From Bacteroidales bacterium (lineage in GTDB: Bacteria > Bacteroidota > Bacteroidia > Bacteroidales > VadinHA17), in the NCBI GenBank assembly GCA_030692905.1, contig JAUYBT010000085.1, forward strand, positions 100-64,099: a DNA stretch of 64,000 nucleotides, read 5' to 3'. Every line of letters begins with the position of its first letter. Position 1 is the first letter of the stretch. Under the pieces are notes generated by a model. It saw only the letters and a list, made by a program, of their open reading frames with translations, had not been told where the DNA came from and did no database searches. The position numbers were made by a program, and so were the translations under genes. Positions 4,294-42,884 of the stretch are shown one piece after another.

Positions 4294-6573
4294 TTACAGT
4301 TTCTTCAACTTAGCGAACCTGAGTAGTAATTTTTTTCTTCCGTCTTTTTCAAACTCCACAGTAGCTGTAGTGTTTGGTTGTTGACCCTCAATTGATATTA
4401 TTATGCCGTTACCAAATCTTTCATGCTGTACTCTATCACCCTCTGAAAATGATGAGGAATCAATGGCGGTGAAGGGAGTGTCAGATGCAGGTTCTGTTTT
4501 CCGGATTTTTTTAAACCGGTCATCCTTTACATAGGTTTGAGGCTCTTCGCGAAAAGATGATAGTTTGCTGCCTGCCTTAATATTATTCTTAAACGGTTTT
4601 CCTCCTGTCTGGAGATAATGCAGAAATTTCTGATCAATCTCACGAAGAAACCGGCTGGGACTGCATCTTTCGAGGTTTCCCCATTTATACCTGTTAAGTG
4701 CGTAGCTCAGAGTTGCCTGCTTTTCGGCACGGGTAACTGCAACGTAGAACAGACGTCTCTCTTCCTCAAGTTCGCGGGCGCTTCCAGATGACATTGGTGA
4801 TGGAAACAAGGTGTCTTCCATTCCGACAATATATACATGCTTGAATTCCAGTCCTTTGGCAGAATGCATGGTCATAAGGGTGACTTTATTACGATCTTCC
4901 TCATTTTCGGTATCCTGATCAGTCAGTAATGCCACATTGGCAATATAAGCCTCCAGTGTTGAAGGCTCGCCGTTGGTCTCAGCTTCCTCGGTAAAAACTT
5001 TTATTGCATTCAACAACTCTTCAAGGTTTTCATAACGGCTGACCTCTTCGGGGAATTTCCCCTCTTTAAGTTCTCTTATAATTCCAGAAGCGAGGGCAAT
5101 TTCCCCCGCTTTTGCAAAAGCATCCGTAGTGCCGGAATTAAGCCGGAGGGTATTAATGAGGTCAACATACATCGATAACTTTTTGACTGTCCCTGAATTA
5201 AAGTACTCCGGATATTTTCCGGCTTCAGGGAGAATACTCCAGGGCGTGACATTAAAAGCTGAAGCCAATTCGAATGTTTTTTGAATTGTAGTATCTCCGA
5301 TACCTCGTTTTGGATAGTTTACCGACCTCTTGAGAGCTTCCTCATCTTCTGGGTTTATTATCATCCTGAAGTACGCCAATATGTCTTTTATCTCTTTACG
5401 TTCGTAGAATGATAATCCTCCATATATTTTATATGGTATGTTTTTTCTGCGGAGAGTCTCTTCAAAGATCCTCGACTGGGCATTTGTCCGGTAAAGAATT
5501 GCAAAATCTAACCAGTTGAGCTGGAGCGAAAATCTCTTATCAAAAATATCCGAAGAAACATTAAACCCCTCTTCAGAATCGGTCATCGCCTGCATAACCT
5601 GTATCTTTTCCCCGGGTTCATTCATTGAAAAAACCTTTTTCTGAATCTGACCCTCATTGTTTGCAATAATGGTGTTTGCTGCATTCACGATTGTCTGGGT
5701 CGACCTGTAATTTTGCTCAAGCTTAAAGAGCTGGTAATCACCGTAGTCGTTTTTGAATTCAAGAATATTTTCAATTCGGGCACCCCTGAATGAGTATATA
5801 CTCTGAGCGTCATCGCCAACCACACAGATATTCTGATGCGAAGCAGCAAGTTTTTTTACTATCAGGTATTGAGAAAAGTTGGTATCCTGATACTCATCAA
5901 CAAGCACATAATTGAACCTTTCCTGGTATGCTGCAAGAACATCCGGGAAATCTCTGAAGAGTATGTTTGTATTTAGTAACAGGTCATCAAAATCCATCGC
6001 ATTAGCCTTGAAACAGCGTGAGGTATAAGTCCTGTAAACATCGGCAAGTAAAGGCATCCGGCTCGATTTGTCATTTTCCTGCATCAAGGAATCAGCAGCA
6101 TACATGCTGGAGGTTACGAGGCTGTTTTTTGCGGTTGATATCCTTGAAGCTATAACACCGGGTTTGTAAATATTATCATTGAGATTAAACTCTTTTATAA
6201 TAGTTCTGATGAGACTTTTAGAATCGGTTGAATCGTAGATAGTATAATTCGATTTGTACCCGAGTCTTTCACCTTCCATCCTCAGTATCTTTGCAAAGAT
6301 GGAGTGAAAGGTACCCATCCAGAGATATCGGGCTATTTCGGGGCTGATAATCCCGGTGATCCTCTCTCTCATCGCTTTTGCAGCCTTGTTCGTAAAGGTC
6401 AATGCAAGAATTTTACCGGCCGGGACGCCCTTCTGAAGAAGATGAACAATGCGATAAGTAAGGACCCTTGTTTTACCGGAACCAGCACCTGCTATTACAA
6501 GAGCAGGTCCTTCAGTATTGATAACTGCTTGTCTCTGAGACTTATTCAGATCGTTCAGATAGTTGGTTGTCAT
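4294..6573 (-). CDS. uvrD: ATP-dependent DNA helicase, UvrD/PcrA/Rep family
   Basis: SF1 motifs AGAGSGKTRVLT, DEYQDTN, GDDAQSIYSFRGA, QNYRST, TMHSAKGLEF and VAVTRA. The start is set at the ATG giving MTTNYLNDLN..., because a -7 box lies inside the longer ORF extension. Confidence 0.9.
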   Translation of the reverse strand: MTTNYLNDLNKSQRQAVINTEGPALVIAGAGSGKTRVLTYRIVHLLQKGVPAGKILALTFTNKAAKAMRERITGIISPEIARYLWMGTFHSIFAKILRMEGERLGYKSNYTIYDSTDSKSLIRTIIKEFNLNDNIYKPGVIASRISTAKNSLVTSSMYAADSLMQENDKSSRMPLLADVYRTYTSRCFKANAMDFDDLLLNTNILFRDFPDVLAAYQERFNYVLVDEYQDTNFSQYLIVKKLAASHQNICVVGDDAQSIYSFRGARIENILEFKNDYGDYQLFKLEQNYRSTQTIVNAANTIIANNEGQIQKKVFSMNEPGEKIQVMQAMTDSEEGFNVSSDIFDKRFSLQLNWLDFAILYRTNAQSRIFEETLRRKNIPYKIYGGLSFYERKEIKDILAYFRMIINPEDEEALKRSVNYPKRGIGDTTIQKTFELASAFNVTPWSILPEAGKYPEYFNSGTVKKLSMYVDLINTLRLNSGTTDAFAKAGEIALASGIIRELKEGKFPEEVSRYENLEELLNAIKVFTEEAETNGEPSTLEAYIANVALLTDQDTENEEDRNKVTLMTMHSAKGLEFKHVYIVGMEDTLFPSPMSSGSARELEEERRLFYVAVTRAEKQATLSYALNRYKWGNLERCSPSRFLREIDQKFLHYLQTGGKPFKNNIKAGSKLSSFREEPQTYVKDDRFKKIRKTEPASDTPFTAIDSSSFSEGDRVQHERFGNGIIISIEGQQPNTTATVEFEKDGRKKLLLRFAKLKKL

Positions 6574-37634: not shown

Positions 37635-38918
<1,284 letters not shown>

Positions 38919-38951
38919 TCTTAAATTACCCATCTAATCTCGCTTTCCGAC

Positions 38952-38981
38952 GTTATTAACAAATGTTGATAACTTTTGTTT
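38952..38981 (+). terminator. intrinsic terminator after eno
   Basis: A 9-bp stem GTTATTAAC/GTTGATAAC (one G-U pair) with an AAAT loop, followed by TTTTGTTT. Confidence 0.6.
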
Positions 38982-39035
38982 AAATCGGGTTTATAACAAC
39001 GGAGATAATTTTATTGTTTTTCAATATTCTTAGTA

Positions 39036-39043
39036 TAAATTTG
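39036..39043 (+). promoter_or_regulatory. Bacteroidota -7 promoter box (TAAATTTG) of the ORF-less unit
   Basis: Exact TAnnTTTG match downstream of the eno terminator. No CDS follows it for about 590 nt. Confidence 0.45.
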
Positions 39044-39049
39044 ATTCAT

Positions 39050-39545
39050 CAGGTGAGCGATAAAAGACTGCTCAAAAGATGTGGAAACGGAAAAGGTTAC
39101 TTAAATGAAGCAAGATCCGTTTCGGTCAGACCCTCGGGTCTGCGCATCAAGAGAGCCGAAACCCGGACTAAAAGGACTTCGCGTCCCGGATGTTCAGTAA
39201 GTCAACGAAAACCGGAAACGTTCTTTCAGCGATTGAGTCACAGGGCTTCAGAATATGAAGGGCTTCGGCCCCGGGTTAACTGAAACTGATGTCATATCCT
39301 TCGGGAAATGCGCAACAGAGCCTGAAAGACACTTCGTCCCGGAAGTCCGCCTTAAAACGGACAAAAGGACAGCCGGAAGGTTCTGCTGTAACAGGCAAAA
39401 CCCGAAAGCCATGGGTTGCATAAACAGATCTTGTATCCGATTAAGCAGCCGGTCAGAATAACAGTAATCTGACATCGTTAGCAGCCTCGGCTGAAAACGG
39501 TGAGTGGGAACTAATCCTAGCGAATAGTTCCCATTATTGTTTTTA
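39050..39545 (+). ncRNA. candidate large structured non-coding RNA (unclassified)
   Basis: It has its own -7 box and its own terminator. It is GC-enriched relative to its flanks and has no credible ORF. It holds many short hairpins with cUUCGg (39260-39271, 39293-39310), CUCG (39127-39142, 39482-39493) and GGAA (39373-39380) loops, joined by recurring A-rich linker motifs. Confidence 0.6.
39506..39545 (+). terminator. intrinsic terminator of the candidate ncRNA
   Basis: A 7-bp GC-rich stem GGGAACT/AGTTCCC (39506-39512 / 39526-39532) is followed by ATTATTGTTTTT. Confidence 0.65.
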
Positions 39546-39603: not shown

Positions 39604-39611
39604 TATCTTTG
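39604..39611 (+). promoter_or_regulatory. Bacteroidota -7 promoter box (TATCTTTG) for the UbiD-family gene
   Basis: Exact TAnnTTTG match 22 nt upstream of the ATG at 39633. Confidence 0.4.
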
Positions 39612-39632: not shown

Positions 39633-41528
39633 ATGGCTTATTCAGGACTAACCGGTTTTATTAGCGCGCTGGAGAAAAAAGATGAGCTCCTGCGGATAAA
39701 AACATTTACAGATCCAATTCTTGAGATCACAGAAATAACAGACCGCGTAACCAAATCCGGAGGGAAAGCATTACTGTTTGAAAATACAGGAACTGAATTC
39801 CCCGTTTTGATAAATGCTTTCGGATCCGATGAACGGATGGCAATGGCAATCGGAAGAGAGGATCTCGATGAGGTCGGTGTGGAAATTGAAAGTATCTTTA
39901 AAAATATTTCAGATAATAAGGTAACTATTTTCAAAAAGCTATCTGCCCTGCCGGCACTTTTTAAATTGGCAGGTTATCTTCCTTCCCGGATGATGGGGAA
40001 AGGCACGTGCCAACAGGTGATACACAGGATACCAGATCTGGGGATACTTCCGGTTCTTAAATGCTGGCCATATGACGGAGGCCGTTTTATAACACTTCCT
40101 ATGGTGCATACCAAACATCCGGAATCCGGAAAAACAAATGTAGGAATGTACAGGATGCAGGTGCTCGATAAAAGCACAACTGCCATGCATTGGCAGCGTC
40201 ATAAAACTGGTGCGAACCATTTTGAAGCCTGGAAAAAAACCAATAAAAAAATGCCGGTCTCTGTAGCTTTGGGAGGAGATCCGGTTTATACATATTCTGC
40301 AACAGCTCCATTGCCTGAAAATATCAATGAATACATTCTGGCAGGCTTCCTTAGAAAGAAAAAGGTCAGAATGGTAAAGTGTCTCACCAACGAACTTTAT
40401 GTGCCATGTGATGCCGACATTATTTTGGAAGGCTATGTCGATCCTGCAGAGGAGCCTGTATGGGAGGGCCCGTTTGGTGATCATACCGGATTCTATTCTC
40501 TTGCTGACTGGTATCCTAAATTTCATGTTACCTGTATAACTCACTCAAAAAAAGCAGTTTACCCTGCAACGATAGTTGGCATTCCTCCCCAGGAAGATGC
40601 ATGGCTTGCAAAGGCTACAGAAAAAATATTTCTTACTCCGGTTAAAATGACAATACAACCTGAAATTGAAGATTTTCATATGCCTGATGCCGGTATCGCC
40701 CATAACCTTTTAATAGTGAAGATCAAAAAGACCTATCCGGGGCAGGGGATGAAAGTTATCAGTTCCTTGTTCGGAGCAGGTCAGATGATGTTTACAAAAT
40801 ACCTGATTGTAGTCAGTGGCGATATTAATATCAGGAATTATAAGAAACTGCTGGTGCATGTTTTTGCAAATGTTGATTTCGGTAAGGATCTGTTGTTCAG
40901 CCGGGGGCCACTCGATGTTCTTGACCACTCCTCTGACTCCTTTTCATTCGGAGGGAAAGCAGGAGTTGACGCAACTGTAAAGCATATTGAAGAAGATACA
41001 GGCAGAAACAATTTCAGACAATACAATAAATCTGCCGTTTTTAATAGTATAAACAACATTTTTGACAGGGATATCATAAAAAATTTTAATCTGAATCTTT
41101 TTAAAGATGATATTCCGATATTGATAGTAACAGTTAACCGCTCTGAGGATCAGGATATGATTGACAAGGTTAAAAGCATGTTCAAAACAAACGATCCGGC
41201 AGGGATTTTCAGTCTGATCGTTGCAGTCGATCATACAGTTGATCCTGGTGACTTGCATATGGTGGCCTGGCAGGTACTTGGAAACTCTGATCCTCAACGC
41301 GATAATGAATATATTTCCCCCGCATCCGTTTTTATCGATGGAACAATAAAAGCTTACAGGAAAGGAGGATTCCCCCGGAAATGGCCGAATATAGTTTGTT
41401 CCAATATTGAAACGATTTCAGCAATCGATCAAAAATGGGAATCGCTCGGAATAGGACCGTTCATCAATTCTCCCTCTATAAAAAACCTGGGATTATGCCG
41501 CAATGGAACAGATGAAATCGTCTGGTAA
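39633..41528 (+). CDS. UbiD family decarboxylase (menaquinone biosynthesis decarboxylase-like)
   Basis: An N-terminal two-thirds with UbiD-like blocks (GGKALLFEN, YDGGRFITLPMVHTKHPESG..NVGMYRMQ, GDPV) plus a C-terminal extension. ATG at 39633 is preferred over the TTG at 39609. Confidence 0.75.
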   Translation: MAYSGLTGFISALEKKDELLRIKTFTDPILEITEITDRVTKSGGKALLFENTGTEFPVLINAFGSDERMAMAIGREDLDEVGVEIESIFKNISDNKVTIFKKLSALPALFKLAGYLPSRMMGKGTCQQVIHRIPDLGILPVLKCWPYDGGRFITLPMVHTKHPESGKTNVGMYRMQVLDKSTTAMHWQRHKTGANHFEAWKKTNKKMPVSVALGGDPVYTYSATAPLPENINEYILAGFLRKKKVRMVKCLTNELYVPCDADIILEGYVDPAEEPVWEGPFGDHTGFYSLADWYPKFHVTCITHSKKAVYPATIVGIPPQEDAWLAKATEKIFLTPVKMTIQPEIEDFHMPDAGIAHNLLIVKIKKTYPGQGMKVISSLFGAGQMMFTKYLIVVSGDINIRNYKKLLVHVFANVDFGKDLLFSRGPLDVLDHSSDSFSFGGKAGVDATVKHIEEDTGRNNFRQYNKSAVFNSINNIFDRDIIKNFNLNLFKDDIPILIVTVNRSEDQDMIDKVKSMFKTNDPAGIFSLIVAVDHTVDPGDLHMVAWQVLGNSDPQRDNEYISPASVFIDGTIKAYRKGGFPRKWPNIVCSNIETISAIDQKWESLGIGPFINSPSIKNLGLCRNGTDEIVW

Positions 41529-41534
41529 CAGAAT

Positions 41535-42884
41535 CTAAATATTTTTTTTAATCTTATCGATGAGTGCTGCCGGCTGGAAAGGTTTACTGATATAATCATC
41601 GATACCCGCTGACAGGCATTCCTCCTTATCTCCAATCATGGCGTTTGCTGTAATTGCGATTATCGGAACATGCGAATTGGTAGTGGATTCAAGAGCCCTG
41701 ATCTTTTCAGAAGCTACCAGTCCGTTCATCACAGGCATCTGGATATCCATCAGGATAAGATCGTAGTTGGTAGTCCCATACTTATCAAGAGCCTCTTTCC
41801 CGTTCGAAGCAGTATCAATACTATTAACCAGGGGACCGAGTGTAAGAAGTGTGATCTTTTGGTTTATGAGATTATCTTCAACAAGAAGTATTTTGATGTC
41901 TTTCAGCTCCTTATGAGTTTTATCTTTCTGTATAAGCTCCTCGATCTTAAGAGAAGCAGTTTTCGGCTTTGGCCCGGAAACAGGATTGGCAAATGGAAGA
42001 AGGATGTTCAATATTGTATAATTATTTCCAACCTCCTGGCTAAAGGTCCCCTTACCTGATGAAATCAGCCTGGCTGCCAGACTGCGTTCAATACCTGTTT
42101 TATCAATAAGAACAATACTTCTATCGGTTTGTATCCTCAATCCAATGAAGCTTTCATTTCCTGATTCTTTCTCTTTTTTGAGATTTATTGTGACCTTGGT
42201 AACTCTATCAGAAATCTGATTTTCAATTGTAGTAAACAGGTCAAGAAAGATCTGCATTAGAATTATCGGGTCGCCAAAACATTCAAAATCACTGAATTCT
42301 TTCTTGTTTAAGATAAAATCTATGTTGGCTTTTTCCTTAAGACTGTAAAGTTCAATAATGTTTTGAATAGTAAATAACAAGTTAAACCTGATAGCCTTCC
42401 GGTGTTCATAACTCAAATTACCGGCCGACTTCATTGTTAATTCATTAACAGTAGTAACCATATTATTCGTTGAAGCGATGAAAGTCTCAAGTAACTCTTT
42501 TTGCTTTTTCTCGAGACCTGATTCCATAAGCATATCAACGATAGTAACAAGGTTGTTCAGGGGTTCTCTTATCTTATGGAAGAAATCGGTAATGAAATCA
42601 TCTTTTCTTTCGTTCAGAGAAGAAAAAACATTAAGGGATTCCTTTATTTTATTATTTAGAACAGTAGCTTTTCTGACAACAATTATGCCGATACACGCAC
42701 CTGCAATTATCAGGCATCCTGCAAGAAGTTTCTGGTCAAAGGTGAGAAGAAGGACGGCTGCTATCAAACAAAACAGACCAATAATCGGATAAGTTTCAAC
42801 GATCTTTCTTCTTTTATCGAATAATTCCTCTGAAGACTTATTTAAACCATTATTGTTGTTTGACTTTCCGGTTTCACTAACCAT
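41535..42884 (-). CDS. hybrid sensor histidine kinase-like protein with C-terminal receiver domain and degenerate ATP-binding domain
   Basis: Two TM helices, H-box FFHKIREPLN, an HATPase-like region lacking the N-box Asn and the DxGxG glycines, and a canonical REC domain (LVEDN...LILMDIQMP...ITANA...DDYISKP). Confidence 0.7.
   Translation of the reverse strand: MVSETGKSNNNNGLNKSSEELFDKRRKIVETYPIIGLFCLIAAVLLLTFDQKLLAGCLIIAGACIGIIVVRKATVLNNKIKESLNVFSSLNERKDDFITDFFHKIREPLNNLVTIVDMLMESGLEKKQKELLETFIASTNNMVTTVNELTMKSAGNLSYEHRKAIRFNLLFTIQNIIELYSLKEKANIDFILNKKEFSDFECFGDPIILMQIFLDLFTTIENQISDRVTKVTINLKKEKESGNESFIGLRIQTDRSIVLIDKTGIERSLAARLISSGKGTFSQEVGNNYTILNILLPFANPVSGPKPKTASLKIEELIQKDKTHKELKDIKILLVEDNLINQKITLLTLGPLVNSIDTASNGKEALDKYGTTNYDLILMDIQMPVMNGLVASEKIRALESTTNSHVPIIAITANAMIGDKEECLSAGIDDYISKPFQPAALIDKIKKNI

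Follow-up and report, generated by a model that had tools for sequence, protein, structure and literature searches.

Large, highly conserved RNAs are rare in bacteria, and the solved ones have tended to show catalysis, ribonucleoprotein machines, or RNA-only cages, with the short list comprising ribosomal RNA (rRNA), RNase P, transfer-messenger RNA (tmRNA), group I/II introns, OLE, GOLLD, ROOL, HEARO, and raiA. The raiA RNA, about 200 nucleotides (nt) in length, occurs in Firmicutes and Actinobacteria, and OLE is encoded among genes for isoprenoids and cofactors. OLE functions as a ribonucleoprotein associated with membranes (PMC9723947, PMC12265935), ROOL and GOLLD are large, ornate bacterial RNAs of unknown function with multi-stem junctions that were recovered by comparative genomics in metagenomes (PMC5737381, PMC12286853), and raiA is a stand-alone, highly conserved, structured non-coding RNA (ncRNA) with its own promoter and terminator in many species of a phylum (PMC10861870). 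We report here on a 64-kb stretch from a Bacteroidales bacterium (GenBank assembly GCA_030692905.1, contig JAUYBT010000085.1, forward-strand positions 100 to 64,099; termed the window below, with coordinates counted from its first letter), in which a 715-bp gap separates the gene for enolase (eno, 37641-38918) from that for a menaquinone-biosynthesis decarboxylase of the UbiD family (ATG at 39633). The segment 39048-39545 on the plus strand of this gap is very probably an independent gene for a large folded ncRNA, belonging to a Bacteroidia family without a match in Rfam 15, for which we favor a protein-binding scaffold as the mechanism. If this is true, it is a new entry on the above list.

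In kind, the closest analogues of this RNA are OLE, ROOL, GOLLD, and raiA, and it is a member of none of them. Like OLE (RF01071, about 600 nt), it extends over several hundred nt with many conserved helices set amid invariant nucleotides, is encoded by a chromosomal single-copy gene in anaerobe-rich lineages, adjoins in this instance an isoprenoid-quinone biosynthesis gene, and would, under the mechanism that we favor, operate as a ribonucleoprotein. However, it matches OLE neither in sequence nor in structure, is found in Bacteroidia rather than Firmicutes, has no adjacent oapA-like gene, possesses its own promoter and a putative operator instead of being embedded in an operon, and has no neighborhood conserved across the family. 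With ROOL and GOLLD it shares large size, an ornate organization with multi-stem junctions, and comparative discovery in metagenomes. Those RNAs assemble into multimeric cages made only of RNA and are linked to prophages and transfer RNA (tRNA) clusters, whereas the present one occupies housekeeping neighborhoods, is absent from viral and phage sets, is more conserved in sequence, has a minimal form of ~325 nt, and matches neither model. Like raiA, it is a stand-alone, conserved, structured ncRNA of unsolved biochemical function with its own promoter and terminator, but the raiA model does not match it. The 6S, signal recognition particle (SRP), bacterial Y, and RNase P RNAs offer a further parallel in their 5'/3' closing stem, adjacent conserved irregular helix, variable periphery, core-gene-level conservation, and single-copy gene; their defining motifs and models are, however, unmatched, and the range over which the new RNA was sampled amounts to part of a single class. 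Canonical RNAs of these types are also to be expected in Bacteroidia.

Evidence for a conserved structured RNA

An initial annotation, made from the sequence of the window alone, had read this gap as housing a self-contained unit free of open reading frames (ORFs) that encodes a large ornate structured RNA, and checks of Rfam, conservation, coding capacity, and neighboring genes support that view. The G+C content is 0.50 inside the RNA region versus 0.29-0.42 in the flanks, confirming the enrichment claimed there. The conservation profile displays a sharp block at 39044-39545 that falls off on either side; the promoter region is more weakly conserved, and 38950-38999 forms a second block. The median nucleotide identity of homologues to the window is 78.7% for the RNA (gaps counted), as against 79.4%, 82.5%, and 71.6% for the coding DNA of eno, rpoA, and ubiD, respectively; the RNA is as conserved as the coding DNA of rpoA and eno.

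Structural conservation, with abundant compensatory changes, is equally evident in an alignment of 68 sequences (A2). The RNAalifold consensus on A2 has compensatory double changes at 52 of its 100 pairs, and a fuller consensus of 144 pairs (94.3% paired) has 81 pairs, amounting to 438 alignment cells, in which both sides have changed. Shuffled alignments yield 41 ± 3 such pairs and 129 ± 10 such cells, with none of 500 reaching the observed values, and registers slid by 1-3 columns yield 26-41 pairs and 62-141 cells. At many pairs, G-U alternates with A-U and G-C (e.g., alignment columns 15/487, 503/510, and 176/212); as the opposite strand would have A-C mismatches in place of the G-U pairs, the RNA is assigned to the plus strand. 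The plus-strand fold is more stable than its shuffles (z = -3.75), and since the minus strand folds well too (z = -5.46), folding energy alone cannot fix the strand.

The contrary view that this is not an RNA at all, i.e., that it is a DNA-level element, such as a protein-binding array, a repeat, or a mobile-element remnant, or a set of small-protein genes, is hardly credible. It could draw on the palindromes flanking the unit (38952-73 and 39505-33), on three overlapping ORFs of 68, 75, and 89 codons, which exist as the initial annotation had listed them, and on a 59-aa ORF called in the copy from Sunxiuqinia. However, the three ORFs are not conserved, the frames being interrupted in most homologues with zero 3-nt periodicity, and the coding hypothesis was rejected on these grounds; there are strand-specific compensations with G-U as well as the 81 pairs changing on both sides; and the element is single-copy per locus and absent from the phage, plasmid, and viral collections. 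At the sequence level, then, covariation, strand-specific G-U pairs, the lack of a coding signal, and its own predicted transcription signals are those expected of a structured ncRNA gene in general. The 59-aa gene, which lacks a Pfam match, is called at 4881-5060 of locus L209, inside the Sunxiuqinia-type RNA copy, and is probably a false ORF call that arose because the RNA gene went unrecognized. Gene callers put spurious small ORFs on this RNA, and an alignment-based model could instead annotate such long 'empty' intergenic regions of Bacteroidia.

Predicted transcription signals bound the unit on both sides. The -7 box TAAATTTG is indeed present at 39036-39043, and the terminator is readable as GGGAACT/AGTTCCC at 39506-12/39526-32 followed by TTATTGTTTTT. 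The Bacteroides promoter consensus is reportedly -33 TTTG / -7 TAnnTTTG. In 147 of 157 unique family members a TAnnTTTG box lies 15-16 nt upstream of the conserved GAGCGATAAA motif, with a suitably spaced -33 TTG. A sigma-70 promoter scan returned only a chance minus-strand site and, as expected, is uninformative for a promoter of the Bacteroidetes type, and a simple terminator scan flagged neither the upstream palindrome nor the 3' hairpin. The lower stem of the terminator is unchanged in all 68 sequences, and small changes in it are seen only in the Sunxiuqinia members of the wider family; its tip varies, covarying between subgroups. TGGGAAC...GTTCCCA occurs once in the window, at this stem.

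Architecture of the RNA

The consensus fold is multi-branched and comprises some 25 helices, the majority with compensatory changes in support. The features of the locus are as follows:

38952-38973, no strand assigned: near-perfect 22-bp palindrome GTTATTAACAAATGTTGATAAC, ~90 bp upstream of the predicted RNA start
38974-39000, no strand assigned: further boxes TTTTGTTTAAATC and GGTTTATAACAAC, resembling half-sites of the palindrome; conservation 0.77-0.82
39013-39043, plus strand: predicted Bacteroidetes-type promoter, read from the sequence, with -33 ATTG (39013-16) and -7 TAAATTTG (39036-43)
39048-39545, plus strand: the predicted RNA, about 497 nt, its 5' end placed from the promoter and its 3' end from the U-tract
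39049-39054, plus strand: 5' strand of helix P1, UCAGGU, pairing with 39467-39472 (AUCUGA); 97-99% paired, several pair types
39055-39065, plus strand: core internal loop, 5' strand, GAGCGAUAAAA; its A2 columns are invariant or nearly so, and it is present in every subgroup
39066-39069, plus strand: 5' strand of helix P2, GACU, pairing with 39451-39454 (GGUC); 93-99% paired in 135 cores
39070-39156, plus strand: 5' domain, with helices 39070-73/39153-56, 39078-83/39143-48, 39084-91/39116-23, and 39127-32/39137-42 (CUCG loop)
39158-39335, plus strand: central domain, closed by 39158-61/39332-35; helices 8-18
39336-39450, plus strand: 3' domain, helices 19-24, including 39336-39/39367-70, 39372-73/39408-09, 39379-87/39394-402, and 39414-20/39444-50
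39455-39466, plus strand: 3' strand of the core internal loop, AGAAUAACAGUA, of which AAUAACAGUA is invariant or near-invariant in A2
39467-39472, plus strand: 3' strand of P1, AUCUGA, pairing with 39049-54
39473-39502, plus strand: 3' hairpin CAUCGUUAGCAGC / GCUGAAAACGGUG with a CUCG tip; helix 25, 92% paired, 7 of its 11 pairs changing on both sides
39503-39545, plus strand: predicted terminator (hairpin 39503-39535), lower stem AUGGGAAC/GUUCCCAU near-invariant, followed by the U-tract UUAUUGUUUUU
39604-39611, plus strand: -7 box TATCTTTG of the UbiD-family gene, separate from the RNA and marking its boundary

A clamp is common to the family and consists of P1, a purine-rich invariant internal loop (GAGCGAUAAAA facing AGAAUAACAGUA), and P2. 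It encloses a variable interior of ~200-480 nt and is followed by two hairpins, the last of which is the terminator with its invariant stem, such that the 3' strand of P1 lies ~75 nt from the 3' end. In 135 unique cores that cover all subgroups, the 6 bp of P1 and the 5 bp of P2 are 93-99% paired with several pair types and stand at fixed offsets from the invariant loop strands; in A2 the P2 pair 39067/39453, for instance, is A-U in 40, G-C in 21, and G-U in 6 sequences. Within the loop, AGUA (39463-66) facing GAG (39055-57) beside P1 may be arranged as in a bulged-G (sarcin-ricin / loop E) motif. A local 5' hairpin GAGCG/UGCUC (39055-59/39069-73; 99.7% paired, zero changes on both sides) is a possible alternative.

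Most of the hairpins named in the initial annotation are supported by compensatory changes in the 68 homologues. The cUUCGg hairpins (GGGCTTCGGCCC at 39260-71 and CATATCCTTCGGGAAATG at 39293-310), the CUCG-capped stems (CAGACCCTCGGGTCTG at 39127-42 and CAGCCTCGGCTG at 39482-93), and the 8-bp stem GAAACGGA/TCCGTTTC (39084-91/39116-23) are all present. Two others fare differently: the CC-GGAA-GG hairpin (39373-80) is absent from the predicted consensus fold, its sequence being nearly invariant, and the 6-bp local stem 39452-57/39468-73 is 76% paired with zero covariation. The arms of the latter belong to the long-range P2 and P1, both of which are 99% paired with covariation in A2, and the local stem was accordingly dropped in their favor.

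Among the enclosed domains, the 5' domain has helices 3-7, which are 89-100% paired, with most pairs of helices 5-7 changing on both sides, and an apical hairpin 39096-100/39107-111 with the loop CUUAAAUG. The central domain contains the hairpin 39163-68/39192-97, whose variable tip (39173-86) grows by ~10 nt in several species, and an optional subdomain of 130 nt (~39198-39330) that is cleanly absent in two species (loci L005/L006 and L037). The 3' domain likewise has a variable tip (39346-49/39358-61), in which the pair 39347/39360 is C-G, U-A, or A-U. Pairwise correlation of the columns of 138 sequences, used to look for pseudoknots, gave nothing reliable, with phylogenetic correlations dominating.

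Distribution and genomic contexts

Homologues of the UbiD-family gene, whose identity comes from Pfam UbiD_N/UbiD/UbiD_C on the closest homologues (named from Bacteroidales metagenome-assembled genomes) and whose neighbor was identified by Pfam Enolase_N/C on the syntenic gene, repeat the arrangement rpoA-rplQ-eno-[long ORF-free gap]-UbiD, and the alignment of the gaps extends over ~600 bp without continuing into the flanking sequence. In a scan restricted to one genome per species, which returned 80 UbiD loci, nhmmer with the window sequence located the RNA, codirectional with UbiD and upstream of it, in about 67 species loci, across UbiD identities from 97% down to 56%. A pattern built from the invariant 3' features and anchored on AAUAACAGUA recovered 70 of 88 loci, always on the plus strand, along with at least 120 metagenome contigs, most of the eno-RNA-UbiD type; overall, more than 170 related bacterial sequences carry the RNA. 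Relatives at 52-55% UbiD identity do not have the RNA, and in them eno abuts UbiD with a spacer of ~140 bp. The rplQ-eno-UbiD adjacency without the RNA was noted in more distant Bacteroidales and Marinilabiliales (loci L079, L081-L083, L085, and L088). Retention of the eno-UbiD adjacency in the RNA-less relatives implies that the RNA gene was gained or lost at this spot; in one further locus (L013) RNA-UbiD is kept and eno lost.

The eno/UbiD synteny holds within one clade only; in other lineages the RNA adjoins clpS, gltA, argS, or lpxA. Divergent full-length relatives (~470-550 nt) have a GH29 fucosidase gene on one side and a convergent argS on the other; a ~605-nt form lies between a DUF4139-like gene and a convergent lpxA; and a minimal form of ~325-336 nt, found after clpS, retains only the clamp and the 3' hairpins. 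The family thereby ranges from about 325 to 605 nt, and these natural minimal and expanded versions already delimit a functional core. A marine (TARA) copy follows a citrate synthase gene whose product is identical to that of 'uncultured Sunxiuqinia sp.' and clusters with those of S. dokdonensis and S. elliptica; in loci encoding the exact citrate synthases of these two species, the RNA comes after acn-icd-icd-gltA. Sunxiuqinia belongs to Prolixibacteraceae in the order Marinilabiliales, and the family spans, within the class Bacteroidia, uncultured Bacteroidales clades and Marinilabiliales/Prolixibacteraceae including cultured Sunxiuqinia, in lineages from sediment, peat, digester, sludge, and marine settings. 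Its occurrence in cultured Sunxiuqinia species makes direct experiments feasible.

None of the neighboring genes offers a clue to function, as the upstream neighbors eno, gltA, and clpS share only the property of being housekeeping genes. In none of the contexts examined does a reverse transcriptase (RT), IscB/TnpB, or recombinase gene lie within ~4 kb of the RNA in either direction, in keeping with what the initial annotation had noted for the window. In two loci (L163 and L190) a gene for a small HD-domain protein sits just upstream of the RNA, with one cluster named (p)ppGpp synthase/HD superfamily hydrolase; apart from housekeeping genes, no other neighbor was seen to recur, and this one may be a coincidence.

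Independence from the UbiD-family gene

The consistent position of the RNA upstream of UbiD, in the same orientation, in one clade's 67 species, its terminator-like 3' hairpin, and the mere 38-56 nt between that terminator and the UbiD start in a few species could all be taken to mean that it is a giant riboswitch or attenuator, controlling the decarboxylase gene in cis through the terminator hairpin. We consider this highly improbable. The UbiD-family gene of the window has its own -7 box (TATCTTTG at 39604-11) and ATG at 39633, as first annotated, and a TAnnTTTG-type box (in some loci only ...CTTT) is present ~25 nt before the ATG in nearly all loci listed. Between the RNA 3' end and the UbiD ATG, the spacer measures anywhere from 38 to 446 nt and has repeat insertions. 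Relatives of the RNA occur after clpS, gltA, the fucosidase gene, or the DUF4139-like gene, with unrelated or convergent downstream genes and no UbiD nearby, and the RNA-less relatives keep the eno-UbiD adjacency. The separate UbiD promoter, the variable spacer, and the unrelated contexts together rule out a UbiD leader or riboswitch, and the occurrence of the RNA in unrelated gene neighborhoods indicates that it acts in trans. The RNA is independent and trans-acting, as well as strongly selected and modular.

The spacer itself has two kinds of repeats. A hairpin-like element (CGTCATTGCGAGGAG...GACGAAGCAATC), sometimes present twice, occurs in loci L050, L049, L061, L065, L070, L076, L013, and L036 and is probably a genomic repeat like the repetitive extragenic palindromic (REP) sequences or miniature inverted-repeat transposable elements (MITEs). 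In loci L038, L040, L057, L070, L077, and L078, short tandem repeats like the -7 box (TTTTATCTTT / GGTCTTTGGTC, 3-6 times) precede the UbiD ATG.

Upstream palindrome

The second conserved block upstream of the RNA contains the palindrome at 38952-38973, which the initial annotation had taken, as part of 38952-38981, for the eno terminator. It is better read as a promoter-upstream DNA operator, for it accompanies the RNA gene across unrelated contexts: of 155 unique upstream regions, 116 have it at a spacing of 100-104 nt from the GAGCGATAAA motif downstream, irrespective of which gene precedes it (clpS and gltA among them). Its identity is 0.82-0.89 in the conservation profile while the surrounding sequence is not conserved, and at its mirrored variable position both T/G and C/A combinations are found, which points to constraint on DNA and not on an RNA hairpin. 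In two loci (L003 and L005) a separate strong GC-rich eno terminator lies upstream of the palindrome; in the window, the palindrome may also help terminate eno. We interpret it as probably a transcription-factor operator of the RNA gene, for a dedicated regulator. A search for the palindrome elsewhere in the window gave no match with a query whose spacing was one base too long.

The palindrome (GTTATTAACAA-n-TTGTTNATAAC) is accompanied by one or two half-site-like boxes (TGTTTATATC, GGTTTACAAC), at a fixed location of about -90 to -40 from the RNA start in all lineages, and the ensemble looks like a candidate operator array, one that could not be matched to a known binding motif. Aligning 152 upstream regions on the -7 box gave a consensus in which half-site-like boxes also appear, and the palindrome with its half-sites was further seen upstream of the RNA in loci L121, L124, L136, L147, L205, L190, and L209-L212. 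This conserved putative operator points to a specific regulator.

Searches for known RNA families and mobile elements

The window has zero matches at gathering thresholds to Rfam 15 (4227 covariance models), in agreement with the absence of known-family motifs noted initially, and 16 loci with divergent relatives likewise have none. At E<=10, the segment 38900-39650 and the divergent relatives gave noise only (snoR10, rli42, mcrA, GlsR26, Transposase-2, IRES_Bip, and CRISPR-DR49), far below gathering scores. The idea that the RNA is a divergent member of a known family, viz., RNase P RNA, tmRNA, SRP RNA, 6S RNA, OLE, ROOL, GOLLD, raiA, HEARO/omega RNA, or a group I/II intron, gains some appeal from its housekeeping-like conservation and from the pairing of its 5' and 3' ends, as in RNase P, SRP, 6S, and tmRNA. 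It is nonetheless scarcely probable, as three very different members have no match at E<=10 even with permissive filters. RNase P RNA is represented by neither RF00010 nor RF00011 at E<=10, and P4 with CR-I to CR-V (GGAAAGUCCGGGC ... ACAGAACCCGGCUUA) was not seen on reading the sequence. No tmRNA was found in the window by ARAGORN or Rfam, and there is no conserved ORF for a tag peptide; by eye, neither a tRNA-like end nor a domain V is apparent. ARAGORN also finds no tRNA in the window. The SRP and 6S / 6S-Flavo models do not match, and the multi-branched fold is unlike the 6S rod.

The OLE, ROOL, GOLLD, raiA, and HEARO models give no match either, and there is no IscB/TnpB, tRNA, or prophage context, the neighbors across contexts being rpoA, rplQ, eno, UbiD, a response regulator, clpS, gltA, argS, and lpxA. 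For group II introns, retrons, DRT systems, and bridge or guide RNAs, no associated gene was present within ~4 kb and no intron model matched. Phages, plasmids, and E. coli genomes, rRNA included, gave no BLAST match, and viral contigs had no match to the 3'-feature pattern; the ideas of a mobile element, a plasmid element, or a simple rRNA mimic were dropped for this reason. The likeness of AAUAACAGUAACC to the 16S 3' segment UAACAAGGUAACC and that of CCGGAAGG to the SRP tetraloop were treated as chance, because neither has model or BLAST support.

Proposed function

The purine-rich rod and the terminator stem are invariant while the helices around them covary freely, a pattern that usually marks sequence-specific protein recognition and hence favors a ribonucleoprotein scaffold. 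We tentatively propose, at something under an even chance, that the RNA acts in trans as a protein-binding scaffold. Its recognition surfaces would be the invariant irregular P1-loop-P2 rod, perhaps with the bulged-G motif, and the invariant terminator stem; the interior domains would provide lineage-specific architecture; and expression would probably be controlled by a dedicated DNA-binding protein at the palindrome near -90. More broadly, we lean toward the view that this is the founding member of an undescribed RNA class of Bacteroidia (~325-605 nt) with a universal 5'/3' clamp and a putative operator of its own, acting in trans as the core of a ribonucleoprotein or as a ribozyme.

Several points weigh against this reading. 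The transcript and both of its ends have been placed from sequence signals only. Phylogenetic structure, which yields many spurious correlated column pairs, could inflate part of the covariation signal, although for the helices described here the slid controls speak against such inflation. The bulged-G assignment rests on invariant positions, which cannot covary. No partner gene for such a scaffold is consistently adjacent across the contexts examined. We found no description of the family in the literature, of which coverage was incomplete, making a prior description possible; the chance that it has already been described outside the literature covered is small though appreciable.

A protein-free RNA, either a ribozyme with the invariant internal loop as its active site or a self-assembling RNA-only particle like ROOL, GOLLD, and OLE, is rather unlikely, yet it has points on its side. 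The size, the multi-junction fold, the many UUCG/GNRA-type tips, and the high conservation resemble those of the large bacterial RNAs, which often prove to be catalytic or homo-oligomeric (PMC12286853, PMC5737381), and no partner-protein gene is linked in the contexts examined. Conversely, no ribozyme or ornate-RNA model in Rfam matches, the RNA lacks the link to tRNA islands or prophages that marks ROOL and GOLLD, and the ~325-nt minimal form (the clamp plus the 3' hairpins) is more like a recognition module than a cage; these points tell against it without being decisive.

A trans-acting regulatory RNA whose conserved single-stranded loops pair with target mRNAs would likewise account for the stand-alone gene, the regulated-looking promoter, the terminator, and the sequence conservation of several loops (e.g., CUUAAAUG and GAAACGUUCUUUC). 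However, at 330-600 nt and with ~25 conserved helices, the RNA is far larger and more constrained than the known base-pairing small RNAs, and the loops conserved in the eno-UbiD clade are lost in the minimal subgroup, with only the clamp and the terminator being universal. We therefore regard base-pairing regulation as improbable and retain the ribonucleoprotein scaffold as the favored, if tentative, mechanism.

Other observations on the locus

The window spans the S10-spc-alpha ribosomal protein cluster, yet zero Rfam families and zero tRNAs were detected in it; the former implies that, in this lineage, ribosomal-protein leader RNAs of the catalogued types are not detectable. Downstream of UbiD, a hybrid HisKA/response-regulator gene (41535-42884, minus strand) is convergent to it in nearly all syntenic loci, with no evident link to the RNA, and in some species a SpoIIE-type phosphatase gene sits between the two.

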